From contig JBEKIG010000006.1 of NCBI GenBank assembly GCA_050011875.1, forward strand, positions 32,001-96,000: a DNA stretch of 64,000 nt. Direction: 5' to 3'. The notes beneath the pieces were generated by a model, which worked only from the letters and a program-made list of their open reading frames with translations, did not search any database and was not told where the DNA came from. A program made the position numbers and the translations under genes. Below are positions 44,063 through 64,000 of the stretch, in pieces. Within the stretch, counting starts at the first letter, position 1. Each line of letters starts with the position of its first letter. This DNA is from Nitrososphaeria archaeon. Lineage in GTDB: Archaea > Thermoproteota > Nitrososphaeria > JACIWG01.

Positions 44063-45070
44063 CTATGTTTTCTTACCTATTTTAATTCCGTTTAATCTCG
44101 AGCAGATCTCACATCTCCCCTTCAGAGGTTCACCAGAAGCTATCCTCAGTACGATCTTTGATAACAATTCATCTGCTAACTTTTTTGTATCATAATACTT
44201 CGACTCTACTTTAATCCTCTCATCAATCATCTCATTCAACTTCGCATCAGTTCTCAGCTTATCTAAGAAGCTTCGAACCTCTTCCCCGTACCCTTTGGCA
44301 GAAATCTCTTTATTGCCTAAGGAATCGTAGACAGGACTTGAAGTGTCGATCGCCCTATCTAATCCTTCGAACTTGTATCCCCTGAGCCTGTTCTCGATTG
44401 CTACATAAACTAGTTCTGCAGAGCCTTCAAGTGCATCCTTTGGAACCTTAAGTTCATCAAACCTTTCTCTTATCCGGTGCTCGATTTCTTCTTTTAGGAG
44501 TTTTTCCTTCTGCTTCCTTTCGGCCGTAAGTGATATTGCTTCTTCAACCTTCTCCTTTTCCATAGGATATGCTTGTAGATGTGACATAACATGCGGTTTA
44601 GTCTGCGACATATAACGTAAGCTGAATTGCAATTCGGATGATCTTACAACCTTCAAATCGGTTGTTACTGCAGACTTCATATAAGTTGTTTCTGTCACAG
44701 GCTGGCCCTCTGGTTTCATAACATAGTCTCTTAGGATATTGGGGGAAATGAATTCTTCAAGTATTCCGCCGTAATCATGGGATAGGGATATGAATCCCGC
44801 CACCAAGTTTTTGCTGTGTTCTAGCAAGGCTTGATACTTCTCACCTGTAGCGAACGGTTCAACTGATTCGAACCACTTATAGACCCCTCTTTCCTTCTTT
44901 ACGAGAACCCCTGATTCAACAAGGGTTTTTAGACATCTTTCAATAGTTCTTTTAAGGCCTTTTTTTCCTTTGATCTCTTTTGAAAGAATATCTACTAACT
45001 CGTCATGCTTCATTTCCCCGCGCGTTCTCAGATTACCGATGATCAATTTAATTGCTTCTTCCCATTTCAT
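44063..45070 (-). CDS. Hypothetical protein with N-terminal winged helix and C-terminal CxxC
   Basis: TIERCLKTLVESGVLVKKERGVY (wHTH) and LKGRCEIC near the C-terminus. Confidence 0.75.
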   Translation of the reverse strand: MKWEEAIKLIIGNLRTRGEMKHDELVDILSKEIKGKKGLKRTIERCLKTLVESGVLVKKERGVYKWFESVEPFATGEKYQALLEHSKNLVAGFISLSHDYGGILEEFISPNILRDYVMKPEGQPVTETTYMKSAVTTDLKVVRSSELQFSLRYMSQTKPHVMSHLQAYPMEKEKVEEAISLTAERKQKEKLLKEEIEHRIRERFDELKVPKDALEGSAELVYVAIENRLRGYKFEGLDRAIDTSSPVYDSLGNKEISAKGYGEEVRSFLDKLRTDAKLNEMIDERIKVESKYYDTKKLADELLSKIVLRIASGEPLKGRCEICSRLNGIKIGKKT

Positions 45071-45194
45071 TTGTCGCTACCGTATACTGTAAATTGGAAC
45101 TTTGTTAATAAAATTTTCGCATCAGAACTTAAAGCGACAAAAATCAAGCGACAAAAGTTTAAAAAGGTGGCCATAAATCCAGAAGTGATATTAA

Positions 45195-46247
45195 ATGATA
45201 AAAATAAAAAATAAGAATCCGGTGTCCGGACAGAACACCGGAAAGGAGGACATTAGTGAAGATAATCCTGGCTCAGAGAAGCAGAGCGGGGCATCCGAGC
45301 TAGATGTCGCACAATTGAAGCGTCTTCTGAAAGAAGGAAAGTTACCATCAGGAAGAAGTCCTGAGGAACATCAGCAGTTCTTTGAAGAATTGCGTAGATC
45401 TGCTGAAGTTCTCGGACACTTACATCCAGTCCTAAGGACGCAATTTGGCATAGCTGCAGGTAGTTCACGGCTTGAAGCTGATCCCAACTGGCCTGTAAGG
45501 GACGTCCCAGTAAAAAACCCTTACAATTATTACCGATTGATGGCAGGTGATAATCAACGGGAAGAAAAGACAAACGAATGGTGGAAAGCGGTCATAATAC
45601 TAGCGGCTAACGAACTTGTGGAAAGGGGCATTCCAAAGGGCGAGATATCGAAAAAGTTGTATAAAGACTTCCCAATTGGAAGGGCCAGACTGTTAAGGCT
45701 ACTTCCCGCGGAGTTCAAGGATTTGCATCAATCAAATGCGGCTCAGGCTTCAGCGCAAAAGAGACAGGCAGAGGCTTACAGGAAACTTATGGAAAGGGAA
45801 AAGTTCGAAAAGGAAAGAAGACGGAAGGAGGAGGAAAGGGAAGCGGCGATGGCTATGGGGAAATTCGTCCGCTACAGTGACAGATTTCCTTCAGATGTTT
45901 CAGATGTAAGGGTGTCCATAGAAGAAACAACTCCAACGGAAACCGAGAATATGATAGTGTCTGAGCTTGTAAATGTTGGGATCAGGTACATACCATCGGC
46001 GGTTTTTCCATATAGAGACAAATCACAGGAGGAGACAGCTCCCCATAAGGTGTATGTGATCCCCATATACATTGAAAGAGGTAAACATGCCATAGGTTTG
46101 GATGTCGAAGGAAGTCCTGCATCCAAAGATGAAGAAGCCCGTTCAAAATATTTCAAGAAACGCGGCATCAGCTTGGTATGGATCCCTAAAGAATTTGCCG
46201 TAAAATATTCAGATATCTTGGCGCAAATCATTAGGGCGTTGATCTAA
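45195..46247 (+). CDS. ParB/Srx-like N-terminal domain + HTH + degenerate DUF559/Vsr-like C-terminal domain
   Basis: EELRRSAEVLGHLHPVL...IAAGSSRLEA...DNQRE (ParB-N pattern). TPTETENMIV...GLDVEG...RSKYFKKRGISLVWIP (DUF559-like pattern). Confidence 0.65.
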   Translation: MIKIKNKNPVSGQNTGKEDISEDNPGSEKQSGASELDVAQLKRLLKEGKLPSGRSPEEHQQFFEELRRSAEVLGHLHPVLRTQFGIAAGSSRLEADPNWPVRDVPVKNPYNYYRLMAGDNQREEKTNEWWKAVIILAANELVERGIPKGEISKKLYKDFPIGRARLLRLLPAEFKDLHQSNAAQASAQKRQAEAYRKLMEREKFEKERRRKEEEREAAMAMGKFVRYSDRFPSDVSDVRVSIEETTPTETENMIVSELVNVGIRYIPSAVFPYRDKSQEETAPHKVYVIPIYIERGKHAIGLDVEGSPASKDEEARSKYFKKRGISLVWIPKEFAVKYSDILAQIIRALI

Positions 46248-46349
46248 AATGGTGGAATTTTTAAAGCCATAATGTGATAAGGTAGATAAACTCGTAGCAC
46301 TTCATCCAGTTATAAGAATGCACGAAATTGCTGCAGGAGAAATTAGGCT

Positions 46350-46538
46350 TCAAGCGTTTTCTTCTATGTGTTCAGTTTCTTCAACATTTTCTTCAAATTC
46401 GTCGGAATTTTCTGTCTCAGTTTCTTCGTCCTCTTCTGTGTCTTCCATATCTTTTTCCCAATTTTCTTCTTCCTGTTTTTCAGATTTACTATTTTTTTTC
46501 ACAGGTTTTTTGCTGTCTTTAACCTCTGCATTAGGCAT
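46350..46538 (-). CDS. Small disordered protein with basic N-terminus and highly acidic C-terminus
   Basis: 62 aa, K-rich then E/D-rich. CTTTAAATA box upstream on the minus strand. Confidence 0.55.
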   Translation of the reverse strand: MPNAEVKDSKKPVKKNSKSEKQEEENWEKDMEDTEEDEETETENSDEFEENVEETEHIEENA

Positions 46539-47020
46539 AAGATCGCAATTAAGCGGTTTATTGTTTTATTTAAAGTTAATTTTAAAAAGAAAGCTGTTAC
46601 TGGTTTCTTGCTCGCAGTTAAACCGCATAAGAATCTCTATTTAACTGGTGAATAAGGGCTCCTTTATATAGGGGGACCACTATTAGAAATCGATAGATAT
46701 GTGCCTTAACGGAACTTACATTAAAGAAGAATACCTGAACGGGAGCATAGGCTATCAGCGTCGACTTAGAAGCTATAGGAACGGATAGCGAGCCTTAATT
46801 TTTGTCCACGAAGTTAATGAGAGCCAAAAGTTGTTATGACTTTTTGCTAATCTGTTTTTAATTTTTTTTATGGATAAATCGTTACCTGATCTTTATGAGC
46901 ATGTTATCTAATGATTGTTCATTATATATTATATGATAGCGTTGGGAAGAGAAAAGGACGACTTTATAGGTAGTAAACAATTTCAGATACTACTTCATAT
47001 ATTAGGAAACATTTGAAAAG

Positions 47021-47539
47021 TTAGGGAATGTTTCTAGATGTAACATTTACGATTTCAGCGAAGTAGCACGTGTGATAGTCTCCTTTGTCGTAGAATCTTT
47101 TTTTCATATCACTTGGAATATCCTTTTTAACAATCCTTTTCTTGAACATAACTTTACATTCCAACGTGACGAGACAATCGGATAAGGTTGGGCTCTTCAC
47201 CGCTTTCGAAGGCTGAACCTTAAGGCCGAGCTTTTTAATTTTATCAACTTTTCTTCCTGTCTCAGTGCCGCAAAAGTCTATGACCTTTTTAAATCCTTCA
47301 GGAGGAACGTTTACCGTAAAATCGCCGGATTGCTCGATCAGTTCATATGTATACCTCGACTTCCTTATGAAGGCGATAAAGAAAGGCTTCGACCAGAGTA
47401 CCCCTACTTCGCCCCACCCGATCGTCATGACGTTGCTTTTTCCGTCTGCTCCGGATGATGCGACCAGTAGGCCTTCTTTTGCAAGAGTGGTATTGATCAA
47501 AGATGAAAATTTATAAACATTTGAGAGATTTGATGGCAT
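47021..47539 (-). CDS. Flavin reductase-like FMN-binding protein (flavoredoxin-like)
   Basis: NVMTIGWG, SRYTYE, DFTVNVP, CGTETGRKVDK and GDYH motifs. Confidence 0.9.
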   Translation of the reverse strand: MPSNLSNVYKFSSLINTTLAKEGLLVASSGADGKSNVMTIGWGEVGVLWSKPFFIAFIRKSRYTYELIEQSGDFTVNVPPEGFKKVIDFCGTETGRKVDKIKKLGLKVQPSKAVKSPTLSDCLVTLECKVMFKKRIVKKDIPSDMKKRFYDKGDYHTCYFAEIVNVTSRNIP

Positions 47540-48058
47540 ATTAAATTTTTTAGCGAGTTATCATAATAAAGGTTTCTTTAAAAGAAGATATGTGCAAAGC
47601 GTTTGATAGGACCCAGATAGGGAAAGGGGGTAAATGCAAAGCGGTGACGTTTACCTTTTTGGTTGATTGACTGTTTTTTTATCATTGTTGTTCGGCTCAA
47701 ACGGAAAATCGGCAAAAAAGTTTGCGCAAACGCTTTTTGTCGGCTCAAATTAATATCGTCATGCATGAGAGCAACATATGAATAAATAATGCACAGGGGG
47801 ATTTGCTTGAGCATATCAGCAGAACTTTAGCGTTAATTGTGCATGATATTTTTTGTTTGAGCCGGAATTATCCAAGGTTATCAAATGATATTATAAAACG
47901 ATATTTTATAATTATAACATTAACCAATTTGGTATAATAATTATGATGTCATTGAATTCAGGGAACCTTGGGATGAACTCAGGTTTCGCTAGGCCCCTAA
48001 GGTCTAACCAGACTCTCTGAGCTTCTTTACCTTCTTTCTGACCCAACCAATCAGGGTA

Positions 48059-48940
48059 TCAGATAAGTTTTCCTTTTGCTATCATAGTTACTTTACCACC
48101 AACATTAACGTCTATCCACTTTTTTTTATCTTCAGCTTTAATGAGAAGCAGAGAAGGCCTTCCTATTTCATAACCTTGTTCCACTCGGATATTTATCCGA
48201 TCTTTACTAAAATATTTGTATTTAACTAAATATCCAGCCAGACAGCCATTTGCACTACCGGTAGCCGGATCCTCATGTACGCCATAATAATCAGCAAAAA
48301 ATCGTGCACTAAGATTATTTTTTTTCTTGCGGGTTTCTGAACAAAAAATTAGTATACCTTTTGCCGATAAATTTTCTATCAAATCGAAGTATTTCTGCAT
48401 ATCAATTTTAGCTCTTTTTAAAGCGTCCAAAGATCTTAATGGAACTATTATTGAAGGAAGACCAGTGGAAACTTCTTGGATAGGAAACCTATCATCTAAA
48501 TCAGCCTTATTAAGGGATAAAACTTCTGACAAAGATTCTGCCTCTAAAATACGCCCAAATGTAGGTTGTGGTTGTTTCATCCAAAGAATATCTTTTTCAT
48601 GGCTCAGCCGACCAAATGTCACAGTAATTTTTCCCGCTTTCAAATTTAAGATAATGTTGTTGACATCCGATTTAATAATTTCTTGTCTTATCACGTAGGC
48701 TGTACCAAGAGTCGGGTGGCCCGCAAAAGGGGCCTCTTTTTCTGGTGTAAAGATACGAACATTATATCCGGCATCTTTTTTTCTACTTGAAAATATAAAT
48801 GTCGTCTCAGAATAATGCATTTCTTGGGCAATTTTCTGCATTTCAGTACCATTGAGTGTTTTTGAACTAATAACAACTGCCAATTGGTTGCCTGAATACT
48901 TTGTTACAGCAAAAACATCTAGTATATAGAAGTTTAGCAT
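48059..48940 (-). CDS. PhzF family epimerase/isomerase
   Basis: DVF...GNQLAV, SETTF, RIFTP..E.PFAGHPTLG and EDPATGSA motifs. Confidence 0.95.
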   Translation of the reverse strand: MLNFYILDVFAVTKYSGNQLAVVISSKTLNGTEMQKIAQEMHYSETTFIFSSRKKDAGYNVRIFTPEKEAPFAGHPTLGTAYVIRQEIIKSDVNNIILNLKAGKITVTFGRLSHEKDILWMKQPQPTFGRILEAESLSEVLSLNKADLDDRFPIQEVSTGLPSIIVPLRSLDALKRAKIDMQKYFDLIENLSAKGILIFCSETRKKKNNLSARFFADYYGVHEDPATGSANGCLAGYLVKYKYFSKDRINIRVEQGYEIGRPSLLLIKAEDKKKWIDVNVGGKVTMIAKGKLI

Positions 48941-49250
48941 CTATATTGCTAATATTATCTTGAAGATATAAAGCTAATATTATGTAAAGTTTATGCGTAT
49001 GACAACACTTGAATCCCTCATAAAAATATGATAATTTAAGACATCAGAAAGAACAAAAAAATCAGACAGAAACTTCCCATCAGTCTAAACGCGTCCAGAA
49101 GCGACTGCGGAATTCGTTTGAGATGCACTATTCTTAAGGAAGAAAGAATGCCTATCCAAATAATTTATTTCTAATATCATATGTATAATAGAAATGGGCT
49201 GGCTCTGGGCGAAAGTCTGATCGAAGGTGCAGGGGGTGAGATTTCAGCAG

Positions 49251-49268
49251 TAATTTACCGGTAAATTA
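49251..49268. promoter_or_regulatory. Perfect 18-bp palindrome TAATTTACCGGTAAATTA, candidate operator
   Basis: Self-complementary sequence about 140 bp upstream of the NTPase gene, in the divergent intergenic region. Confidence 0.5.
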
Positions 49269-49410
49269 TTAGGAGAACCACTAGGTTCAAGTTTGGTGTG
49301 TTCTATACCTAAATTGATTTAAGTTTTTGAGATTCTATAATGTCCCGAATTGAATAAGGTTCTCTGAAAAAATAAAGTTTAAATTTGCCCTCTTTCTAAA
49401 CAAAGCTAAA

Positions 49411-52365
49411 TTGGATAGAAGTGAACTGATAAGAGGTTTTATACGTGACAATCTAGGCTTGTTGACTCTAAAGTCTTTCCCAGTCGAATTGTATAAGAAA
49501 GCAAAGCAAAAATATTTCATTGAAAGACATGGTAACTCTCAGCAAGGTGTACCCCGAGACTCAGAAATAGCTAGTGAGACCATTTGGTTCCTTATAAGGA
49601 GAAACCAAATACAATCACAGGATGAACTTGACAAAATTCTATCTGTTGGTCTAATGGCTGAGAAACTTAAAAATAAACAAACATTCTACGAATTTATCGA
49701 GTCAAGAAAGCCGTCTGAGCCTATTGTAGATTTTTCAAAGGTAAAACAAGCAGATTTCTTGGCTGGGATGCGTGAACAGATTAGGAAAGAACTTGAAAGC
49801 GAAATGAAAGTTTCCAATGTTTATAGAATAGAAGAACTAGATAAAGAAATCCAACGAAAAGTTGAAGAATATCAGTCTATTCCTTCGGTGATAGATGGTA
49901 AGGAATTCCCTGAACCTCCTCAACCCGTAATTGAGCTTGAAGCTCAGACATATATACCTTGGTGGAGGCAATTAAATCTAACCAAGGATCCATTCCCAGT
50001 AACAGAGGGATTGAGACGAATAGACCCTTCCTCATATGAAAGTGTAATAGTGAAAACACAAACCTTCCAGAAGTATTTGTCATATTTAGACGAAGCTCCT
50101 GAAGAATTGTTTAAGAACACAATCTTTTTCGGTGAATTTGGGTCGGGTAAGACTACCCTTTTTGAATATTTAACGAAAGCTTTTTCATCCAAAGAGATAT
50201 ATTCTATATATGTACAGTTATATTCTGAGAAAGATCTCCAAAGTCTGAAGATTAAATTTAAGGAGAAAATGATTGAAGAACTTCAAGAAATTCTTAATGA
50301 ACATGAAGGCGATGTATTAAGTATAGGAACAGCCAATATGGATATGACCTTAAGAACTCTTCTAAATAAGCTTGAGTCCAAATTGAATTCAAGAGGACTG
50401 ATAATTTTCGTTGACGATCTACACAAGAATAAAGAAGATTATCCCGTATCTTTAGAATTCCTTAGTTATTTGCAAATATTTACATCAGAGATAGTGAAAA
50501 AAACAGGTTTTCAAGATATTGCCTTCTACGTAGCAGGTGCCCTTCCATGGGAGCATGAAATAAGGACCCAACCAAGATATTCTGGTTCATTGGCTCGTCG
50601 TGAAACTATACCAGATATAACAGAAGAAGAGGCTTGGCAAATGCTTAATAAACGATTAGAGGCATTTTATCCCAACCCTGAAGTGAAGAGGACAGTAGAC
50701 AGAAAATTTGTTGCTCAAGTTTATAAAGACTTGAAAATAAACAAATTTGAATTAACGTTCCGTGGTTTCATACGGCGTCTGGTAGATGAATTCAAAATAG
50801 GTGACTTTCATGCTCTTACTAGTGACCCAGTTCATATACAACAAGATGTATTAGATCATATTAAAAAAGATCTCGAATCAAATACAATACTTAAAGAAAG
50901 GTTCAATACCCTATTGCAGGAGAAAATTCAAGGAGTTGAACAAAGAGTTGCATCCCTTCGCCTTCTTGCTGATATATTCTTAAAAAAGTCGGTAAAAGAC
51001 CAAGACTTAACTGAAAACAAATACTTCTGCTTGAAACAACTTAGTGACACTAGGCTTATCATCAAACAAAGAGAGAAGGAACATGACTTTTCATGGATCA
51101 TTTGTCCCGAGTTATCTGAGCGCGTTCGCTTCATTGCTTCCAATTATTCTCTATCACTCGAAGATTATATACTAAAAATATATGGTTTAACCCCAGGAAA
51201 ACGTAAAGGTCTAAATGAAGAAATTCAACAAACAAAGACTTTTATCGATGAAAGTGTTGTGGAAGGTAAAGATATACTAGAAGGAGCATTAAAATTGCAC
51301 AAAGAAATAATTGAAATTATGGAGAATTATAACCTAGAAATATCTGAAATCGAACTTGCAAGTAAGTGCAGACAATCATTAGAACTGTTAACTAGATTTT
51401 ATCTAACACAAGTTGAGCCAATCGATGAATCTAGCCCCTTTACTATTGGACTGGAATTCTGGAAGGATTACTGGTATTCTCCTAGAGAAATGGCACAATT
51501 CCAAAATGTGATATCTGACGAATATGAAATCAGACAGAGAATATGGCATGTTTGTAGTATTTATAGACAAGCTTACAGCTCAATTTTCGTGTTTATTACT
51601 AGAGAATATCAGTTCCTCACGTCTGTGCGTATACCTTCATTGCATCTAGATAATAGTGATATAAAACAGTTAGTCGAAGCGAGAGACTGGTGGTCGAATC
51701 AGAATTACGAGCGATGCGTTCAGTGCCTATATGGTTCTATACAATCCAAGCTTAGAACATTTGTTCAGAACATTTTTACTTTAATTTATGGTGATATAGA
51801 TGACCGCTTTAATCATGTAGCAGAGCCTTTGCGTTCGCGAATAAGAGATAGTCTTCCTTCAAAACCTTCTTCGCTAATACAAGAATTTTCCACTTTGACC
51901 TTAAAAGAAATTGGAGAGCTTATGACAGATGCCAATGCTAACAGAGAGATCAATAATTGGAACTGCCTTTTTTCAAAGCTTTTTCAACCTTTAACCAAAG
52001 ATGAAATAACGGGATATATCAATAGATTATCGTCTCTGAAACTGCAATGTGACAACATGGAAGAGTTTGGCAAAGATATTTCTCTCGAATTGAGAGAACT
52101 ACTGCTCTTCATGCGTGACCTTAGTTGCAAATCCAATATGGCATACGTCAATCTCTTACGTGAAGGTTTACAGATACGATTGAATGTAACGAGTGCTATG
52201 CTATACATCACGCCAATTAACGAAATTGAAAAACTGAAAACAATTGGCCTGTCTTTTAGGCCGGAAGTGTTCCAAGCTCTTGATACACACCTTTCATCTG
52301 GGACAATTAGTTTAAGTGATCAGAGTTATGCTAGAGAATATGAAGAAATCCCTGTACGACACTGA
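49411..52365 (+). CDS. Large P-loop NTPase (AAA+/STAND-like) with a C-terminal Swt1-like HEPN-type helical region; N-terminal part of an interrupted NTPase-TIR frame
   Basis: LNLTKDPF, Walker A GEFGSGKTT and Walker B IIFVDDLH. The region IQSKLRTFV...IYG...TLKEIGELM...NNWNCLFSKLF resembles Swt1-like HEPN. Confidence 0.75.
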   Translation: MDRSELIRGFIRDNLGLLTLKSFPVELYKKAKQKYFIERHGNSQQGVPRDSEIASETIWFLIRRNQIQSQDELDKILSVGLMAEKLKNKQTFYEFIESRKPSEPIVDFSKVKQADFLAGMREQIRKELESEMKVSNVYRIEELDKEIQRKVEEYQSIPSVIDGKEFPEPPQPVIELEAQTYIPWWRQLNLTKDPFPVTEGLRRIDPSSYESVIVKTQTFQKYLSYLDEAPEELFKNTIFFGEFGSGKTTLFEYLTKAFSSKEIYSIYVQLYSEKDLQSLKIKFKEKMIEELQEILNEHEGDVLSIGTANMDMTLRTLLNKLESKLNSRGLIIFVDDLHKNKEDYPVSLEFLSYLQIFTSEIVKKTGFQDIAFYVAGALPWEHEIRTQPRYSGSLARRETIPDITEEEAWQMLNKRLEAFYPNPEVKRTVDRKFVAQVYKDLKINKFELTFRGFIRRLVDEFKIGDFHALTSDPVHIQQDVLDHIKKDLESNTILKERFNTLLQEKIQGVEQRVASLRLLADIFLKKSVKDQDLTENKYFCLKQLSDTRLIIKQREKEHDFSWIICPELSERVRFIASNYSLSLEDYILKIYGLTPGKRKGLNEEIQQTKTFIDESVVEGKDILEGALKLHKEIIEIMENYNLEISEIELASKCRQSLELLTRFYLTQVEPIDESSPFTIGLEFWKDYWYSPREMAQFQNVISDEYEIRQRIWHVCSIYRQAYSSIFVFITREYQFLTSVRIPSLHLDNSDIKQLVEARDWWSNQNYERCVQCLYGSIQSKLRTFVQNIFTLIYGDIDDRFNHVAEPLRSRIRDSLPSKPSSLIQEFSTLTLKEIGELMTDANANREINNWNCLFSKLFQPLTKDEITGYINRLSSLKLQCDNMEEFGKDISLELRELLLFMRDLSCKSNMAYVNLLREGLQIRLNVTSAMLYITPINEIEKLKTIGLSFRPEVFQALDTHLSSGTISLSDQSYAREYEEIPVRH

Positions 52366-52410
52366 ATAATATACTTAGCCTTAGCTACAAATGAAGGAAA
52401 GGCTTACATT

Positions 52411-52881
52411 TTGAATATCAAATCCAAATATACTATTGAAAAAGACAAGGGATCAACAATATCAATCAGGAGGGTGTTTAAATTTGCTGAAAAGCCTCCG
52501 AGGGTATTTATTTGTTATTCTAGCAAAGATAGGGATTTTGCCCAAAAGCTAGCAAAAGATCTGACAACGTATGGAATAATGGTGTGGTATGATGAATACG
52601 AGATAAAAGTCGGTGACTCGATTACAGAAAAGATTAGCAAAGCTCTTCAAGAATGTGATTATCTCTGTATTATATTGTCTCCAGATTCCGTTAATTCAGA
52701 ATGGGTTAAGAGAGAGCTGTCTGTAGCACTATTGGATGAGCTAGATCATAAGCGTGTTAAAGTCCTTCCAATCCTTTGGAAAGACTGCCAAGTTCCCCCA
52801 CTTATTCAGGATAAAAGACGAGCAAACTTCAGTCATATTTATGAAAAGGGACTTGAGGAACTGTTAGACCGTTTTTCCTAA
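52411..52881 (+). CDS. TIR domain (TIR_2-type) protein, in frame with the upstream NTPase
   Basis: VFICYSSKD, VWYDEYEI.VGDS and LSPDSVNSEWVKREL (catalytic Glu). Same frame as 49411, with a single TGA between them. Confidence 0.9.
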   Translation: MNIKSKYTIEKDKGSTISIRRVFKFAEKPPRVFICYSSKDRDFAQKLAKDLTTYGIMVWYDEYEIKVGDSITEKISKALQECDYLCIILSPDSVNSEWVKRELSVALLDELDHKRVKVLPILWKDCQVPPLIQDKRRANFSHIYEKGLEELLDRFS

Positions 52882-53386
52882 ACCAATGGAGAAAAATCTT
52901 TTATTTTATTATTGAGTAATAGAACACTTTGCTATTTGGCATGTATTGCTGACCAAAGGATGATTATTTATCTTCTCTAATGAAAAACCTAACCTGTTCA
53001 GTGAAACGGTATAGCCATTCCAGTAAAGAAACTCATGTATGGATCTTTGGTCTAGACCGATTATTGATAGAATTTTGGATTTTTCGAATAATAGACCAAA
53101 ATCATGAAAATTTATCTGAACTTCATGGACAAAATTCTTAGTCAGATGGTGCCCCCATCCCATGCTGACAACTTTTTTAGTCTAAAATCGGCTGATCTAG
53201 CGGTTAAGATTCCTTTGGCTTTTAAAAAGTTAGGGGGAGGCTAACAGAAGATAATAATGGTGAAAGGGAGACCTTAAATTTGGAATCCCAACCATGGCCA
53301 TCATTCATTTCCATTCATTCATGACCAGAGTTCCCACAATATGGGTAGAAGTCTATAATAATCAGTGTCATCAATCTGGTAGTGGT

Positions 53387-54922
53387 ATGCCAGTTCAGGA
53401 GAAACTCTTCAACGAAGATAAGATGACCAATAATAACATTGAGAAGCGATTGTGGGATATTGCAAACAATCTGAGGGCAAATTCCAAGCTGAGCTCTTCC
53501 GAGTACTCCACCCCTGTGCTTGGGCTTATTTTCCTGCGTCATGCTGCCTTCAAATTTACCAAGAAACAAAAGGAGCTAGAAAAAAATGTACAAGGCTCAA
53601 GAAGGCAGGTAGGTAAGCTGGATTTTCAGGCAGAGGGCGTACTTTACCTTCCGGAAAAAGCCAGATACTCCTACTTACTCAACCTACCAGAAGGTGATGA
53701 TATCGGCAAGGCCATGGATACGGCGATGGATGCTATTGAAGATGAGAATCCTGATCTTAAAGGAACGCTTCCTAGAGGTTATTCCAAGTTCTCAAATGAT
53801 TTGCTTGTCACGCTCTTGAGAGCGTTCTCACAGATAGCCGATGATATTGAGGGAGACGTTTTCGGAAGGATCTACGAGTACTTTCTTGGCGAGTTTGCGA
53901 TGACTGAAGGCCAGAAGGGTGGCGAGTTCTACACACCAATATCACTGGTCAAACTGATTGTCGAAGTGATTGAACCATTCCACGGCAAGATTCTTGACCC
54001 AGCATGTGGTTCAGGCGGTATGTTTGTTCAAAGTGCACGTTTCGTTGAAGAGCGAAAAAGGAATCCAAGTGAGGAATTGTCCATCTATGGCCAAGAAAGA
54101 GTCACAGGCACAGTAAATCTGTGCAAGATGAACCTTGCAGTCCACGGATTATCAGGCGATATAAGAGAGGGCAACAGCTACTATGAAGACATTCACAAAA
54201 GCACCGGTAAATTCGACTATGTTATGGCCAATCCCCCATTCAACGTCAAGAAAGTTGACTACGAAAAAGTCAAAGGAGATCATCGCTGGCCTTTCGGGTT
54301 ACCATCGACTGATAATGCCAACTATCTGTGGATTCAGCTATTCTATTCTGCTTTAAATGACAAAGGCAGAGCAGGATTTGTCATGGCAAATTCTGCGGCA
54401 GATGCAAGAGGTGCTGAGTTAGAAATAAGAAAGAAACTGATTCAGTCAGATGCCATAGACGTAATGATTTCGATAAGTCCAAACTTCTTTTACACTGTAA
54501 CACTACCATGCACATTATGGTTCTTGGACAAGGACAAAGTTAACACAAAAAGGAAAGGAAATATTCTTTTCATAGATGCTCGCAGTATCTTCAATCAAGT
54601 CGACAGGGCTCATAGAGAATTTGTTCCAGAGCAAATTGACCAAATAGCAGGAATAGTTAGAAGTTATCGTGAAGAGAAAGGAGCAAAGTCGTATAAGGAT
54701 GTTCAAGGACTTTGTAAGATTACAACTCTCAAAGAAATAGAGGAACAAGGTTGGTCTTTGAATCCTGGCAGATATATTGGGGTCTCTGAAAAAAAGGAAG
54801 AAGATTATGATTTCAATGAGAGGATTGAAGAGTTTGATGAAGAACTTGAAACACTTAACGAAGAAGCACATCAGCTTGAAAAACAAATATCGGAGAACGT
54901 GAACAAATTATTAGGGGATTAA
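53387..54922 (+). CDS. hsdM: Type I restriction-modification methyltransferase subunit
   Basis: [16 protein letters not shown] and NPPF motifs. Likely start MPVQEK (53387). Confidence 0.95.
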
Positions 54923-54923
54923 A

Positions 54924-56201
54924 GTGACATCACAAGAATATGAAGTCAAATTGGGTGACTGCATTGAAACTTTAAAAGGATTTGCATTCAAAAGTCAATG
55001 GTATACAGATAAAGGCGTCCCTTTGATAAAAGTGAGTGATTTTTCCGATGATTCAATATCAACAGAAAACATAACCTTTATACCTGAACACATTGCCAAG
55101 GATTTTGACAGATATAGAATCCGAGAAAACGATATAATCATTCAAACAGTGGGCTCCTGGCCGAGAAACCCAAAATCTGTTGTTGGAAAAGCAATTCTGG
55201 TTCCAAGAAACTGCAATAATTCTCTACTCAATCAGAATGCTGTTAAAATCATTCCAAATCGGAACATTGATAACAATTTTCTTTTCTATTTATTGAGGTC
55301 GAAGCAATTTAAAGACTACATTATAAACACAGCGCAAGGAGCTGCAAATCAAGCAAGCATAACATTGGAATCGATTAAGAACTTTAAATTTGTTTTGCCT
55401 GATTTCGATTCACAGAAAAAAATTGGCGCACAAATACGAAATTATGACGACCTCATCAAGAACAATTCTCGTCGTATTCAACTTCTCGAACATATAGCAA
55501 AACTTATCTATGATGAATGGTTTGTCAGATTCAAATTTCCGGGACATGAAAATATCGGGATAGTTGAATCTGAATTAGGAGATATCCCAAAGGGATGGAA
55601 GGTCTCCAAATTGAGTGAAGTAATAGATATCGACCCGAAAATGGCATTTCTAAAAAATTCAGAAAAAGTCTATGTTCCAATGAGTGCGTTATCCCCGAAC
55701 TCAATGTTAATTGACGAGTTTGAATTTCGAAGAGGTAATGATGGTTCGAAATTCAAGAATGGGGATACTTTATTCGCTCGCATTACTCCTAGTCTTGAAC
55801 ATGGTAAGACTGCCTTCGTTCAGTTCCTTGGCCCAGACGAAGTTGCGTTAGGCTCTACAGAGTTCATTGTTTTCAGATCGAGAACTCTGAACCCATATTA
55901 TGTTTACTTTATTGCACGTAACGAAAATTTGCGGCAGCACGCAATTAAGAGTATGACTGGGGCGTCTGGTCGACAGAGGGTTCAATCGTCTTGTTTTGAC
56001 AGTTTCTATTTCCCACGTCCCGAAGAAGATACATTAACAAAGTTCGCTTCAATAGTAGCACCGATGTTTCATGAAATCCAAGTCCTTTGTAGGAAGAATC
56101 AAATATTGCAACACATGCGGAATCTGCTTCTACCAAAGTTGATTTCTGGTGAGATTAATGTTTCAGAATTGGATATTAAGGTTCCTGAAGTGGAAGCATG
56201 A
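54924..56201 (+). CDS. hsdS: Type I restriction-modification specificity subunit
   Basis: Two TRDs with conserved spacers (P...QKKI..., IYDEWFVRFKFPG, IPKGW, RNLLLPKLISGE). Confidence 0.95.
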   Translation: MTSQEYEVKLGDCIETLKGFAFKSQWYTDKGVPLIKVSDFSDDSISTENITFIPEHIAKDFDRYRIRENDIIIQTVGSWPRNPKSVVGKAILVPRNCNNSLLNQNAVKIIPNRNIDNNFLFYLLRSKQFKDYIINTAQGAANQASITLESIKNFKFVLPDFDSQKKIGAQIRNYDDLIKNNSRRIQLLEHIAKLIYDEWFVRFKFPGHENIGIVESELGDIPKGWKVSKLSEVIDIDPKMAFLKNSEKVYVPMSALSPNSMLIDEFEFRRGNDGSKFKNGDTLFARITPSLEHGKTAFVQFLGPDEVALGSTEFIVFRSRTLNPYYVYFIARNENLRQHAIKSMTGASGRQRVQSSCFDSFYFPRPEEDTLTKFASIVAPMFHEIQVLCRKNQILQHMRNLLLPKLISGEINVSELDIKVPEVEA

Positions 56202-59200
56202 CTGACTACTCGGAAGATGAATTGATCGAGCGTTCAGCAATAAAGGTCCTAACTCAGGATTTGCATTATGAGTATCTAAACAGCTATGAAGAGAAGTTTC
56301 CTCAGACTCTTGGCAGGGAAACAAAGTCAGACGTTGTTCTTGTCAATAGACTATCCAAGGCCATCAACAAACTGAATGAGGGATTGTCAGAGGAAGCCAA
56401 GAAAGAAGCTATCTCAGAATTACTGCAAGATAGAAGCAGGCTTTCCTTGGTCAAGGCCAATCAAGAATTCTACCAAATCATCAAAGATGGTGTCAAGGTC
56501 AAGACTAAGAATAACAGGGGAGAATACGAATACCGTAACGTAAAAATTATCGACTTCAACAATCCTGAAGCCAATGACTTCTTCCTTGCTTCGCAATTCT
56601 GGGTTTGTGGCGAAATCTATACAAGAAGACCTGACTTGGTGTGCTTCGTAAATGGCGTACCTCTTGTTATGATAGAGTTGAAAGCAAGAAGTGTGGATGT
56701 CAAGAGGGCATTTGACGATAACATTACAGATTACAAGGATACGATCCCGCAGCTCTTCTGGTATAATGCATTTGTTATCATCTCAAACGGCAGAGATGCA
56801 AAGATAGGTAGCATCACAAGTGGATATGAACACTTCTCTGAATGGAAGAAGGTTGACGCAGAAAAGGAGGTCGGTATCGTATCACTGGAAAGAGTCCTGA
56901 AGGGAACTTGCGACAAGAATAGACTCATAGACTTATTTGAGAATTTCATTCTCTTTACAACAATCGAAGGAAAACAGGTCAAGCTGATTGCAAAGAACCA
57001 TCAATACCTCGGTGTCAACAATGCCATTGAGGTCTTCAAGAATAGGAAGATGAACAACGGCAGATTGGGCGTCTTCTGGCACACACAGGGCTCAGGTAAA
57101 AGCTATTCCATGATATTCTTCTCACAGAAAGTGCTCAGAAAATTTGAGGGACACTACACTTTTGTCATTGTCACAGACCGTCAGGAGCTCGACCAGCAGA
57201 TTTACCAGAACTTCCAAAACGCTGGCGTGGTTACTGAAGAAAAGGTTCAAGCCGAAAGCGGTGAACATCTGAAGAGACTTTTGAGAGAAGACCATAGACT
57301 CGTATTCACGTTGATTCACAAATTCAATACCGAGAAGGGAGAAACCTATCCCAAGCTGTCTGATAGAGACGACATCATTGTCATGACGGATGAGGCTCAC
57401 CGGACACAATACGATATTCTTGCTCTAAATATGAGGAATGCTTTGCCCAATGCCTCATTCATTGCATTCACAGGAACGCCACTCATGAAAGAAGGTGAAG
57501 AAAAGACGAGGGCCACTTTCGGTGATTACGTTAGTATCTACAACTTCAGAGAAAGCGTCGAAGACCAAGCCACCGTTCCACTCTACTATGAGAATAGAGT
57601 TCCTGAACTACAAATCATCAACCCAAACCTAAACGATGACATATACAACGTAATTGAAGAAGCGGACTTGGATACGGCTCAGGAAGAGAAGCTGGCCCGA
57701 GAGTTTGATAGAGAATACCACATTTTAACGAGAGAAGACCGCCTCAACACCATCGCTGAAGATATCGTTAATCATTTCATCAACAGAGGCTATGGAGGCA
57801 AGGCCATGGTGGTATCAATTGATAAAATCACCACTGTTAAAATGTACGATAAGGTCCAATACTATTGGCAGAAATATATCAATACCCTCAAAGCAAAAGC
57901 AGACAAAGCAAAATATGAGGATGCAACGCCAATAAATGACAAGATCGCACAGCAGAAAAAGGTAGACATGGCAGTAGTCATCAGCCAAGAACAGAACGAA
58001 GTCAAGAAATTCAAAGAAAAAGGCCTTGACATCGCTAAACATAGAAAGCGAATGGTCAATGAAGACCTGGCAACCATCTTCAAAGACCCCGACAGTCACT
58101 TCAAGATAGTCTTCGTCTGCAATATGTGGATGACAGGATTTGACGTTCCATGTCTTTCCACAATTTACCTGGATAAACCGATGAAGAACCACACGCTAAT
58201 GCAGGCAATCGCAAGAGCGAATAGAGTCTTCAAAGAGAAACAGGCAGGCTTCATTGTTGATTATGCCAACATCTTCAAGAATCTAAAGAAAGCACTCGCA
58301 ATCTATGCAGCACCAATCCCAGGCGGACAAGTAGACCTGCCAATCCAATCAAAAGACGAACTCGTGCAGGTCTTGAGAGACTACATCAAAGAACTGAACA
58401 AGTTCTTAGGGGAACAAGGCATTAACCAAGTGAAGATTATCACTAGCAAGGGAATAGAAAAGAATGCCCTACTTGATGCAGCGTTATCAGCTCTCGTCAT
58501 CAATGACAACGTTAAGAACAACTTCCTACAGAAGACAGGAATCGCAATTAAAACATACAGTGCAATATTACCTCATAAAGACGCATCAGAATTCAGCGCT
58601 GACATTACGCTCTACCTAGAACTTGTCAGAGAAATACGCTCACTCGACCCAGAAGTTGATATAAACGCAGTCATGCAAAACGTAGAGACTGTCCTCGACA
58701 AATCGATAGCCTCAAAAAGCTACGTAATCAGCGAGTCAACTAAAAAAACTATTGACCTTAGCAAGATTGACTTTGAGGCATTGAGGAAAAAGTTCGAGAA
58801 GAAAAAGAGCAACGCAGACGTTGAACGTCTCAAGAACATTATCACATTCAAATTGAAAGAGATGGTACGACTAAATAGCATAAGGATTGATTATCAAACA
58901 AGATTCCAGCAGCTTATTGACGACTATAATTCAGGTTCGATGAATCAAGAGACATTCTTCGATGAACTGGTTAGGTTTAGCATCGGTTTGGACAAGGAAG
59001 AAAGAAGAACATTGGTGGAAGGTTTAACCGAAGAAGAACTTGTTCTCTTCGATAAACTGAATAAACCAAATCTTCCAGAGAAAGACAAAAACCAAATCAA
59101 GAAAGTGGCAAAAGACTTGCTACATAGACTCCAACCTGTGAAACTCGTACTTGATTGGAGAAAGAAACAGCAGACAAGAGCATCAGTCAGACTTGAAATC

Positions 59201-59362
59201 GAAAAAGAACTCGATGTTGGTCTACCAAAGATTTACACGCAAGAAGATTACCAACAAAAGTGTCAAGAGGTTTTCCAACACTTCTATGACAATTACTTTG
59301 GAGATGGCCTAAGTGTATTCAACACAGGCTTTGGAGTTAATTTCCAGAGGAGGCTTGGATAG
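56198..59362 (+). CDS. hsdR: Type I restriction endonuclease/translocase subunit
   Basis: RPD...IELK nuclease motif, HTQGSGKS, DEAHR, FTGTP, TGFDVP and QAIARANR motifs. Confidence 0.96.
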   Translation: MTDYSEDELIERSAIKVLTQDLHYEYLNSYEEKFPQTLGRETKSDVVLVNRLSKAINKLNEGLSEEAKKEAISELLQDRSRLSLVKANQEFYQIIKDGVKVKTKNNRGEYEYRNVKIIDFNNPEANDFFLASQFWVCGEIYTRRPDLVCFVNGVPLVMIELKARSVDVKRAFDDNITDYKDTIPQLFWYNAFVIISNGRDAKIGSITSGYEHFSEWKKVDAEKEVGIVSLERVLKGTCDKNRLIDLFENFILFTTIEGKQVKLIAKNHQYLGVNNAIEVFKNRKMNNGRLGVFWHTQGSGKSYSMIFFSQKVLRKFEGHYTFVIVTDRQELDQQIYQNFQNAGVVTEEKVQAESGEHLKRLLREDHRLVFTLIHKFNTEKGETYPKLSDRDDIIVMTDEAHRTQYDILALNMRNALPNASFIAFTGTPLMKEGEEKTRATFGDYVSIYNFRESVEDQATVPLYYENRVPELQIINPNLNDDIYNVIEEADLDTAQEEKLAREFDREYHILTREDRLNTIAEDIVNHFINRGYGGKAMVVSIDKITTVKMYDKVQYYWQKYINTLKAKADKAKYEDATPINDKIAQQKKVDMAVVISQEQNEVKKFKEKGLDIAKHRKRMVNEDLATIFKDPDSHFKIVFVCNMWMTGFDVPCLSTIYLDKPMKNHTLMQAIARANRVFKEKQAGFIVDYANIFKNLKKALAIYAAPIPGGQVDLPIQSKDELVQVLRDYIKELNKFLGEQGINQVKIITSKGIEKNALLDAALSALVINDNVKNNFLQKTGIAIKTYSAILPHKDASEFSADITLYLELVREIRSLDPEVDINAVMQNVETVLDKSIASKSYVISESTKKTIDLSKIDFEALRKKFEKKKSNADVERLKNIITFKLKEMVRLNSIRIDYQTRFQQLIDDYNSGSMNQETFFDELVRFSIGLDKEERRTLVEGLTEEELVLFDKLNKPNLPEKDKNQIKKVAKDLLHRLQPVKLVLDWRKKQQTRASVRLEIEKELDVGLPKIYTQEDYQQKCQEVFQHFYDNYFGDGLSVFNTGFGVNFQRRLG

Positions 59363-61559: not shown

Positions 61560-62282
61560 TTATCTTACCTAACTCTTGAAGCACGTTCCTAACATAAAAG
61601 ACTTGGCTTTTCCAGTATTAACTTTGATAGTTTTAAGAATACATTTATAGCAAATGTGTGTGTGTTTCAATAATTTTTTATCCTGTATGGTGTCACGATC
61701 TATCCCTCTTTGCATTAAGATAGATGGAACTGAAATGACTTACGACACTAACAAGATGCAGAAAGTCTATTTCACGTGATGACATGAAGTCTCTCAAAAA
61801 GTAAAGAAACAGGTCTCTTAAGGGAGGCCTTACCAAATTTTTTATTAGCAAAAGATGCAAGAGGGACTCGAACCCGTTTAGGTATGAATCCAACCCGGTC
61901 CACTTTCCAGTAAGACATCAATCCTTATGTTGAATTTTTTTCTATAAAATTTAATGTAATTATATAAAGCTGTCATAGCGTCTTCTATCTGCGGGCCCTT
62001 TCTATGATATCGAAATCTTAAAGCTTTTTCTGGGTTCAACTTAAACCTAAACGCCCTTTTTAATCGCTATCTTAGATTTTTAAAAAAATGACCTTCTCTA
62101 ATTTGACGACAGGATGCAGGGTAGAATCCCTACTCTCAGCAGTCGTAAGGCCAGAAGGCTCGTGATCAAGGCGACGGCTGTAGTTGGGCTCGGAGTGAAC
62201 CTTACAATACTCGGTCAGCTCCCCAGCAGCTCCGCGAGTATTTCACCACGACCATGTCGACCCTCTTAAGGAAGCTAGGTGG

Positions 62283-63761
62283 CTACCCTCCTTTTCTCAT
62301 GCTCCCCCGCTGTATGCAAGTGAAGAAGCCCACCGTCGCGATGACTGCGGAAACTATGAAGGCTCTCCTCATGCCCTCGACGAAGGACTCCGCGGCCACG
62401 TTCAGTTGGGGAATCGCCACGCCAATGAACAGCGAAGAAAGAAGGCCCGCGGAGGCTGCGCTGGCCACCACGGCCCCCATCAACGCGAGGCTCAGGGACT
62501 GGCCGCTGAACCTCATCGTAGCTAGCGTCCCGCTGGCGACCCCCAGCCTATCCCTCTCCACCGAGCCCATCACGGCGCTCGTGTTGGGGGAGGAGAAGAG
62601 CCCCATGCCGACGCCTATGACGAGGAGGCCGAGGATCACCTGGGTCAAAGGCGAGGAGAGGCCCAGAGTGCTCATCACGAGGAGCCCTGAGGTGATCAAG
62701 GCCATGCCCAGCGAGCTGAAGCCGCGCGACCCGAACCTGTCCGACAGCCAACCGCTGACGGGAGAGAGCAACGCCATGGAGACCGGCATCACGAGGAGCA
62801 CCAGGCCTGCCCGGAGAACGTCGTATCCAAGGATCCTCTGAAGGTAGAAGGAGATGAAGAAGCTGACCCCGAAGAAGGAGGTGTAGTTAAGCAGGGCCGA
62901 AAGGTTGGCTGCCGCGAATAGTCGATTGCCGGTGAAGAGGGAAAGGTCGAGCATGGCCTTTGTCTTCCTTCCCCTCTCGATGGCGGCAAAGGAAATCAGC
63001 AGGAGCCCGCCGGCCGTCAGTAGCCCGATTATGAAAGGCGTCTCCCAGCCCAAGAAATCCCCCAACGTCAGGCCGACGAGGACGGCGACGAGCCCGGCGG
63101 AGAACGTGCCTGCCCCTAGGAGGTCTAACCCCTTCTTGGAGCCGACGATGGGCGGTTCCTTCAGCTTGATGAGCGCGAGTACTATCACGAGCAGCCCGAT
63201 GGGCACGTTGACGTAGAAGATCGAGCGCCAGCCGTAGGCGAACGTCAGGAAGCCTCCTAGGCTGGGGCCCACCGAGAGACCCACGTAGGTGGACATTGAG
63301 TTGATCCCCAACGCCTTCCCCCTCTCACTCGCAGGGAAGGTGTCCGTGACTATCGCCGTCGACGTGGCCCCTATGAATGCCGCCCCAGCCCCCTCGATGA
63401 CCCTGAACAAGATCAGCTCGGGGCCGCTGGAAGCGTTACCGCAGAGGAAGGAGGCCACCGCGAAGATGGCGAAGCCAGAGACGAAGATCGGCTTCCTTCC
63501 CCTACTGTCGGAGAGCCTCCCCAAGCTCAGGAGGAGCACGGTCAAAGCGACAAGGTACGAAGTAGGTACCCATATGACCGCCTCGTAGCCCATCTTCAGC
63601 CCTTCGGCGATGGAGGGCAGAGAAACGCTCACTATGGTGCTGTCGAGCGGCGCCATGAAAGCCCCGATGGACGTTATCAGGAGCACAATCCACTTGTACA
63701 GCCCCCCCTGTTCTGCCCTCACAAAGTCGCGGTCGACGAGGGAAAAACGCTTCTTTGTCAT
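62283..63761 (-). CDS. MFS transporter, DHA2/EmrB-QacA type (14 TM)
   Basis: LDSTIVSVSLP, GRLSDSRGRK (motif A), WRSIFYVNVPIG and LDL.G motifs. Confidence 0.93.
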   Translation of the reverse strand: MTKKRFSLVDRDFVRAEQGGLYKWIVLLITSIGAFMAPLDSTIVSVSLPSIAEGLKMGYEAVIWVPTSYLVALTVLLLSLGRLSDSRGRKPIFVSGFAIFAVASFLCGNASSGPELILFRVIEGAGAAFIGATSTAIVTDTFPASERGKALGINSMSTYVGLSVGPSLGGFLTFAYGWRSIFYVNVPIGLLVIVLALIKLKEPPIVGSKKGLDLLGAGTFSAGLVAVLVGLTLGDFLGWETPFIIGLLTAGGLLLISFAAIERGRKTKAMLDLSLFTGNRLFAAANLSALLNYTSFFGVSFFISFYLQRILGYDVLRAGLVLLVMPVSMALLSPVSGWLSDRFGSRGFSSLGMALITSGLLVMSTLGLSSPLTQVILGLLVIGVGMGLFSSPNTSAVMGSVERDRLGVASGTLATMRFSGQSLSLALMGAVVASAASAGLLSSLFIGVAIPQLNVAAESFVEGMRRAFIVSAVIATVGFFTCIQRGSMRKGG

Positions 63762-64000
63762 CGCTATCTATCAGATGAACTAAGGCGATAAAAAAGCTTT
63801 GGCCCTTCCTTGCCCTTCACGAGCAATCTGCCCTGCAAGTCGATCTGGGTGGAACGGGCCGAGGTTTCTATTGATAGGCTATTTGCATTATATACTATGC
63901 TATTGGTCTAGACCGAGTTTATGACAACAGGAAGATGGAAGGGTGTAATGGAATTGGTAGGGTTCCTAATACGCTGGAATCCTTCGAGTTCTGATGGTCT

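Follow-up and report, generated by a model that had tools for sequence, protein, structure and literature searches.

Orc/Cdc6-family ATPases are described in passages of PMC10853773 (Aravind group, NAR 2024) as a mainstay of conflict systems, some of them fused to a TIR domain, and the same passages set out an effector class that combines a Cdc6/Orc nucleoside triphosphatase (NTPase) with a C-terminal restriction-endonuclease domain, these fusions lying in operons that also encode either HerA/FtsK or a further Orc/Cdc6 together with a KAP NTPase. Sections of PMC3710099 (Anantharaman et al., 2013) describe fusions of Swt1-like HEPN domains, one partner being an AAA+ ATPase encoded in restriction-modification operons (Ava_2192) and others being STAND ATPases, as well as HEPN families which have the histidine of the R-x4-H motif without its arginine (c2405, fused to AbiTii), and a 2026 survey treats about 90 STAND families (PMC13581612, in excerpt). 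Investigation of a 64,000-nucleotide stretch of the genome of a Nitrososphaeria archaeon (assembly GCA_050011875.1, contig JBEKIG010000006.1, positions 32,001 to 96,000 of the forward strand; this whole stretch is called the window below) revealed two adjacent open reading frames (ORFs) at window positions 49411-52881, on the plus strand, which are read here, with a probability of roughly 0.6, as the halves of one gene for a defence protein of about 1,156 amino acids (aa), of an undescribed family in which an oligomerising NTPase would switch on an effector.

The frame 49411-52881 comprises 1,156 codons with a TGA as its sole interruption and zero frameshifts. The AlphaFold2 model of all 1,156 residues, in which X stands for the stop codon, was built from a 61-row family alignment and had a mean predicted local distance difference test score (pLDDT) of 85.3 and a predicted template modelling score (pTM) of 0.54, and a second model of residues 600-1030, from 92 rows, had a pLDDT of 94.3 and a pTM of 0.92; folds were compared by VIA-align against 48,161 chains. 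The features assigned to the gene are the following.

49411-52365 (+): upstream piece, 984 codons from a TTG start to the in-frame TGA; homologues align from residue 1.
49411-49875 (+): N-terminal helical domain (residues 1-100) and long helix (residues 111-155), from the secondary structure of the model and from conservation.
49954-50823 (+): AAA+ NTPase of the Orc1/Cdc6 kind (residues 182-471), from Pfam, Foldseek and VIA-align.
50842-51195 (+): helical region with a beta-hairpin (residues 478-595; model strands 550-556 and 559-564).
51208-51630 (+): helical bundle (residues 600-740; residues 1-141 of the second model), with unspecific helical matches only, Z at most 8.5.
51640-52161 (+): Swt1-like HEPN domain (residues 744-917), catalytically degenerate, from hhalign, VIA-align and the motif table.
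52165-52500 (+): last core domain (residues 919-1030; residues 320-431 of the second model), modelled as alpha/beta with a helix-helix-hairpin end.
52363-52365 (+): in-frame TGA, codon 985, which splits the gene.
52366-52881 (+): downstream piece, 171 codons plus the TAA at 52879-52881, with the remainder of the last core domain and the TIR domain.
52501-52878 (+): TIR domain (residues 1031-1156), from Pfam TIR_2, VIA-align and the family alignment.

Regarding the integrity of the gene, the upstream piece spans the N-terminal domain, the NTPase, the helical bundle, the HEPN domain and the start of the last core domain, and the window copy retains all 10 invariant family columns. A search of a protein collection returned 61 relatives at E<=0.001 among 7,999 scored candidates, the nearest of which (54% identity; 1,157 and 1,172 aa) have the TIR domain fused in frame and can be aligned across the stop. 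In the alignment with the 17 closest relatives the stop column sits in a conserved stretch, in which the window has PVRH before the stop and its relatives read PYRE[F]; the residue of the relatives in this column is F in 13, V in two, C in one and S in one. When the 171-aa downstream piece was searched against proteins of 94-300 aa, 69 matches were obtained at E<=1e-10, among which the 45 residues preceding the TIR domain are covered by no protein but that of the window (91% coverage), the other 68 of 68 covering at most 78% and consisting of the TIR domain alone, and no natural two-gene form of the split was found by this search. Since the nearest relatives are uninterrupted fusions and no free-standing relative of the downstream piece turned up in this collection, the window copy is most likely a formerly fused gene hit by a recent nonsense mutation, and in its split state it is probably inactive. 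A member in another genome of the class (G274, at L002:1549-3879) has two in-frame stops, one TAG and one TAA, so that decay of the gene may be recurrent.

Records of the gene in split form, as 984 aa plus 156 aa, come from three assemblies, on contigs of 107,585, 95,247 and 309,168 bases, and the proteins are letter-identical across them apart from the translation of the start codon; the three assemblies are evidently of one strain, and the same stop in all of them means that it is real in that strain, while these records hold no evolutionary information. This identity, the otherwise intact state of both pieces, which have no extra stops or frameshifts, and the in-frame TTG at 52411 from which gene callers begin a downstream protein of 156 aa would all be in keeping with a functional split, in which the 984-aa NTPase-HEPN protein and a separate TIR piece of about 156 aa form a two-gene system or the TGA is usefully read through. 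Such an arrangement nevertheless appears unlikely, as the stop lies not in a linker but inside a conserved core domain, which is common to all family members and confidently folded (pLDDT mostly >90), all close relatives are fused, the short matches elsewhere cover the TIR domain only, and the letter-identical records carry no evolutionary weight. TGA also terminates six other long ORFs within the window, so this genome does not read it as sense.

Regarding the TIR domain, the Pfam profile TIR_2 (PF13676) was matched over its full length (1-122) with 104 bits against a cut-off of 28 and an E of 1e-29, and SEWVKRELS at residues 1096-1104 includes, after the conserved Trp, the Glu at residue 1102 (52714-52716), which we take to be the TIR catalytic residue. 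Residues 1027-1156 of the model matched 4w8h_A with Z 12.6 (root-mean-square deviation (rmsd) 3.4, 119 aligned) and Cat1 with Z 12.3, followed by AbTir and PdTIR (8g83_A and 3h16_A; bacterial TIR NADases), with Z 11.5 at 30% identity, and by ThsB (6lhy_A), with Z 11.3. Over the 19 TIR rows of the family the catalytic column holds Glu in 13 and Asp in six. Asp replaces the Glu in six (P0004, P0006, P0010, P0011, P0016 and P0017) of the seven members which have a further domain after the TIR, all six Asp rows falling in the sub-clade with a further C-terminal domain (Schlafen/AlbA_2 or a second TIR-like one), and the change hints at a second round of effector replacement.

The same domain could instead make a signalling nucleotide, as ThsB does in Thoeris, and activate a separate effector with no killing by NAD+ depletion of its own; in line with this, the ThsB models of PADLOC match the TIR piece (E 6.2e-13), as does PDC-S66, both over the TIR part only, the NCBIfam model of Thoeris type III ThcB4 matches it with an E of 2.3e-11 and a score far below the cut-off, and the ThsB structure is among the fold matches. 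The fold is equally close to the NAD+-consuming TIRs 8g83_A and 3h16_A, however, no partner is visible beside the gene, and the genome, which is 97% complete, contains a single TIR_2 match, the window's own, and no match to SIR2_2, which is also absent beside the gene and was the sole ThsA-type family searched. Because of the single TIR_2 match and the missing SIR2_2 partner, a Thoeris-like signalling role is the less likely one and is considered quite improbable.

The NTPase has an intact Walker A motif, GEFGSGKTT, at 50131-50157 (residues 241-249), a Walker B motif, IIFVDD, at 50401-50418 (within IIFVDDLHK, residues 331-339) and a DPFP motif at residues 193-196. The motifs GxxGxGKT and hhhhDD are invariant across the family alignment, and the invariant columns of the domain are G241, G244, G246, K247, D335, K339, Q355, R415 and R451. 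In the upstream piece Pfam detected ATPase_2 (E 4.6e-9; 36.8 bits against a cut-off of 33.2) and also AAA_22, the matches to nSTAND3 and NB-ARC falling under their cut-offs, and PADLOC returned matches to the P-loop only (LeoBC, 6.4e-4; mad8, 5.9e-3; VakA, E 1). By Foldseek against the PDB, archaeal Cdc6/Orc1 proteins came top (2qby_A with E 2.4e-7, then 1w5t and 1fnn), with ZAR1, NLRC4, Apaf-1 and CED-4 ranked lower. VIA-align of residues 182-471 gave Z 14.5 for 2qby_A (rmsd 3.7, 234 aligned) and 14.4 for 1w5s_A, followed by BrxC (13.9), TnsC (12.7 to 12.4), CED-4 (11.8), NRC2 (11.7), ZAR1 (11.3) and MalT (11.2). The modelled NTPase fold is nearer to Orc1/Cdc6, BrxC and TnsC (Z 14.5 to 12.4) than to the Avs-type and NLR STANDs (Z 11.8 to 11.2).

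The N-terminal domain is conserved family-wide, with F36, I53, A54 and L73 nearly invariant; it had no Pfam match, and the ESM Atlas returned nothing for residues 1-180. Residues 478-595 may be the winged-helix part which follows the lid in Orc/Cdc6 and STAND proteins, an assignment which is tentative because ORC chains align as far as about residue 595 only at an rmsd of about 18. The best match of the family profile among all solved structures had an E of 0.0015 and covered 25 residues of the P-loop.

Residues 744-917 are confirmed as a Swt1-like HEPN domain. The family columns for residues 740-930 were compared by hhalign with a reference alignment of eight Swt1-HEPN segments, matched by the Pfam model in 301 genomes of the same phylum, and gave a probability of 96.6% (E 5.5e-10, 120 columns), nine other 190-residue slices giving at most 2.1% and two slices overlapping the HEPN region 90.6% and 96.6%; when the 18 rows of the TIR clade were used by themselves the probability was 81.2%, and with the 42 rows of the remaining family it was 96.5%. 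Pfam HEPN_Swt1 (PF18731) itself had no match at E<=1 in the window protein and none elsewhere in its genome, and among the relatives P0167 (E 3.6e-4; 21.2 bits against 27.5) and P0092 (E 0.13) matched it below the cut-off. Residues 145-318 of the second model matched HEPN chains in 11 of the 11 top rows of VIA-align, with Z 10.0 to 8.5, among them 1wwp_B (Z 10.0, rmsd 2.6, 109 aligned), the HEPN of AbiA (9.4), 4nqf_B (9.0), a HEPN toxin (8.9) and Csm6 (8.9), and lower rows held yeast Swt1 (4pqz_A, 7.9), the sacsin HEPN (7.8) and AbiF (7.7). In helical bundles Z below about 13 is weak taken alone, and because these values are modest the assignment does not rest on the fold by itself. Foldseek of the 600-1030 model against the PDB gave nothing at E<=0.001, with the HEPN structure 2hsb at E 1.3 only, and the ESM Atlas gave for residues 430-984 leads below its bar, including a Swt1-HEPN cluster with TM 0.23/0.32. 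In a two-copy complex prediction the 598-1030 module of the intact homologue P0002 scored 0.01 against a mark of 0.42.

The window domain has no R-x4-H; in the stretch LKLQCDN at 52036-52056 the two positions are K877 and N882. In the TIR clade (18 rows including the window) the Arg position is K in seven rows and R in six, and the His is present in none of the 18, while in the other 43 rows, mostly without an effector, the Arg position is N in 26 and D in nine and the His is present in 38. In a wider set of 150 proteins covering the motif and the end of the core, the His was found in 0 of 21 TIR rows, in 118 of 124 rows without an extension and in three of five rows which are extended otherwise, by 110 aa or more. 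The full R...H pair occurs in one distant member, P0167.

Thus several observations of a preliminary description of this DNA, made from the letters alone, hold on closer analysis: the P-loop NTPase of the 984-aa piece with its Walker motifs as quoted there, the Swt1-like HEPN without R-x4-H which had been called by eye, the in-frame TIR domain with its Glu intact, and the C-terminal position of this TIR without an obvious repeat sensor, no repeat of the TPR or WD-like type being detected in the model or in the Pfam scan.

Regarding the family as a whole, an exhaustive profile search of 1.84 billion cluster representatives detected 510 proteins at E<=0.001, of which 404 reached 1e-10 and 263 reached 1e-30; most members have about 1,040 aa and match the profile end to end. 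A core of about 1,030 aa is constant, consisting of the N-terminal domain, the NTPase, the helical bundle, the HEPN and the small alpha/beta domain, and the commonest architecture is this bare core with no added effector. TIR is carried by 16 of the 30 closest proteins scanned; it is followed by Schlafen/AlbA_2 in P0004, P0006, P0010 and P0011 and by a second domain, TIR-like or nucleoside deoxyribosyltransferase-like, in P0017, while Schlafen/AlbA_2 without a Pfam-recognisable TIR is present in P0021 and, weakly, in P0072, and an N-terminal calcineurin-like phosphoesterase (Metallophos) has been added in others (P0188, L015). As the usual form carries no added effector and keeps the HEPN His, the TIR forms are, judged by this comparison of sequences, a derived minority. 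The C-terminal tails of about 170 aa in P0022, P0039, P0041 and P0092 have D...E-x-K-like patterns, which by eye suggests nucleases of the restriction-endonuclease fold (PD-(D/E)xK); Pfam at E<=1 found no family in these four tails, and they were rejected as TIR domains by hhalign against the family TIR alignment (probability 0.1%).

The named members are archaeal, from one metagenome-assembled genome (MAG) each of Nitrososphaerales (P0017 and P0038), Nitrososphaerota and Thorarchaeota and, more distantly, from a Thermoplasmata MAG. The family was detected in none of nine other genomes of the taxonomic family and, at E<=1e-20, in none of 400 other genomes of a phylum sample; in a sample of 401 genomes of the class the NTPase part was found in three only, the archaeon's own (with one TGA), G274 (with two stops) and G092 (a fragment). 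Viral contigs contained no true member, the single match having 24% identity over residues 84-271. A mobile element might instead use such an Orc1/Cdc6-like protein for its replication or maintenance, or the TIR could sit by chance on a regulator; a role of this kind, outside defence, would fit the archaeal Cdc6/Orc1 proteins as best fold matches, the low-G+C region and the patchy distribution, but is very improbable given the HEPN core and the variable TIR, Schlafen/AlbA_2 and by-eye nuclease-like tails, which are typical of conflict systems, the lack of integrase or replication genes nearby (the closest integrase being 45 kb away) and the lack of members on viral contigs.

None of PADLOC, NCBIfam and Pfam has a model matching the family end to end; among the relatives, P0019 matched zero PADLOC families and P0002 matched TIR models only, the TIR-NLR model being aligned over the TIR part alone. 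Full-text literature searches found no description of the family, and the word-searchable supplements of PMC13581612, in which the family may stand under other identifiers, have no mention of MDV3278033, Nitrososphaer, Thaumarchaeo or Swt1. The family reads as an undescribed variety of the known kind of defence protein, here a predicted one, which combines an NTPase with a swappable effector. Of the checks named in the preliminary description, the PADLOC search showed no described system end to end, an outcome that it had counted in favour of novelty, and the search for homologues showed effectors swapped on the same NTPase core, these being TIR, Schlafen/AlbA_2 and Metallophos.

For the mechanism, a cue from an invader or virus would be sensed by the N-terminal domain (residues 1-155), the helical bundle (residues 600-740) or a DNA-binding Orc-like module, upon which the ATP-bound NTPase would oligomerise, gather the effector domains and so activate them. 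For the majority of members this effector would be the HEPN, whose (N/D)-x4-H is conserved; in the clade of the window protein the C-terminal TIR would take this role, depleting NAD+ and arresting the infected cell, with the His-less HEPN persisting as a scaffold. TIR NADases require self-association, so that oligomerisation of the NTPase would switch on NAD+ breakdown; HEPN RNases likewise act as dimers. Both the ATP-dependent oligomerisation and the activation of the TIR are inferred from established knowledge of Orc/Cdc6, STAND and TIR proteins.

Several points weigh against the interpretation as an effector-switching defence protein. No domain of the protein is recognised as a sensor. The stop is known from three assemblies of evidently one strain, which leaves some, though low, probability to a working split or to low read-through. 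Neither clade has a full R-x4-H, so the activity of the HEPN in members without an added effector is uncertain. In a FastTree phylogeny of 152 rows, from which the HEPN region was excluded, five changes are needed for TIR and nine for the His, and the five independent contrasts comprise about three in the expected direction, two with no difference and none opposed (sign test p 0.25); with so few independent events, a link between loss of the His and gain of the TIR is suggestive and not proven. Neighbours matching defence models were found at five of eight loci, the window and seven relatives, but the contigs were short ones and the count has no background control, so it is not claimed to show statistical enrichment.

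A more far-reaching interpretation would place the family as a new, mainly archaeal class of immune ATPases, Orc1/Cdc6-like and distinct from classical STANDs, in which effectors were replaced one after another on the same scaffold, an ancestral Swt1-type HEPN RNase with an unusual (N/D)-x4-H site being succeeded by gain of a C-terminal TIR and loss of the His, and then, in a sub-clade, by the change of the TIR Glu to Asp after addition of a further domain, Schlafen/AlbA_2 or a second TIR-like one, and in which the Orc-like module senses invading DNA, for example replication origins or intermediates; taken as a whole this succession is doubtful and is offered tentatively.

Regarding the genomic setting, one further feature lies outside the gene.

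53294-59362 (+): type I restriction-modification (RM) system, hsdM, hsdS and hsdR, from Pfam and PADLOC.

This RM system, which the preliminary description had placed beside the gene, is real and complete and lies directly downstream (PADLOC MTase_I 3.4e-219, Specificity_I 3.1e-82, REase_I 1.9e-175), with PhzF and a flavin reductase as further neighbours. Besides the window, neighbours matching defence models were seen at L011 (a fragment of a type I R subunit and a pPIWI-associated nuclease domain), L012 (IetA), L015 (a SAVED effector and an Avs4-like protein) and L017 (AbiTii), while L010 and L019 had no defence-model neighbours and L002 a helix-turn-helix match only. At L015 (122-11497) the distant member with the N-terminal calcineurin-like phosphoesterase adjoins the SAVED-domain effector, and the 1,753-aa phosphoesterase-STAND protein next door matches PADLOC Avs4 (2.7e-27).

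The gene has a G+C content of 35.8% against 42.2% for the window and lies in a low-G+C stretch (46000-53300), at the edge of which three ORFs (44063-46644; 335, 350 and 108 aa) were matched by neither Pfam nor PADLOC. Some 13 kb upstream of the gene, at 33423-36782 (+), a 670-aa SMC/RecF-like ATPase is encoded (Pfam SMC_N; PADLOC mad3 3.8e-30 and LmuB 8.2e-19), followed by two overlapping small ORFs without a family match, and this locus may be a second defence system, Lamassu or related. At 62000-64000 the G+C rises to 0.57-0.62 over a gene for an MFS transporter (62283-63761, minus strand), which may represent foreign DNA or an assembly join. A tyrosine integrase gene (2784-3908, minus strand; Pfam Phage_integrase 1.4e-16) lies 45 kb off, with no link seen. 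No flanking direct repeats of note were detected, nor any Rfam RNA or tRNA within the window, and a sigma-70 promoter scan was uninformative, the host being archaeal.

Archaeal defence systems are far less charted than bacterial ones, especially in the lineage of ammonia oxidisers, from which the named close relatives come. If these proteins are antiviral, an Orc1/Cdc6-like switch joins the immune NTPases, an archaeal TIR effector occurs in a layout opposite to that of Avs and NLR proteins, and the members form a natural series of effector replacement, from HEPN with His through His-less HEPN with TIR to TIR with Asp and Schlafen/AlbA_2. The principle of an NTPase with a swappable effector is familiar, and the succession from HEPN to TIR provides an evolutionary lead; the interrupted copy is a reminder that such genes often get lost or silenced. 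The preliminary description had proposed an archaeal antiviral sensor-effector of non-standard layout, of which the domain order of NTPase, degenerate HEPN and TIR stands, whereas the Avs-like switch gives way to an Orc1/Cdc6-like one, the TIR layout belongs to a minority and is not the family's usual form, and the copy described is interrupted.

Compared with known systems, the window protein resembles BrxC of BREX in its NTPase fold (9zdx_A, Z 13.9, rmsd 5.1, 265 aligned) but differs in that Pfam BrxC_BrxD reached only E 0.015 and 14.6 bits against a cut-off of 22.2, over the P-loop region; no BREX genes were seen beside the gene, PglZ and PglX not having been searched genome-wide. With Thoeris ThsB and stand-alone TIR defence proteins it shares a TIR with the conserved Glu, whereas its TIR is fused to an NTPase core of 1,030 aa. 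In the Swt1/Abi2-type fusions described in sections of PMC3710099 the HEPN is N-terminal and mostly active, whereas in this family it comes after the NTPase and has a full R-x4-H in neither clade. The Orc/Cdc6 conflict ATPases, compared by the description in passages of PMC10853773 only, have the same general build, but the window gene stands alone, has a Swt1-like HEPN in its core and has archaeal named members. In Avs and NLR-like proteins, too, one large chain combines a switch NTPase of the P-loop type with an effector that can be swapped (TIR, nucleases), and the expected logic is alike, in that a cue would lead to oligomerisation and thence to activation of the effector. The window protein is unlike them in that its effector is C-terminal and not N-terminal, no repeat sensor of the TPR/WD type is present, its NTPase has no PADLOC Avs or NLR match and is closer to Orc1/Cdc6 (Z 14.5), and the constant core of its family includes an internal HEPN domain.

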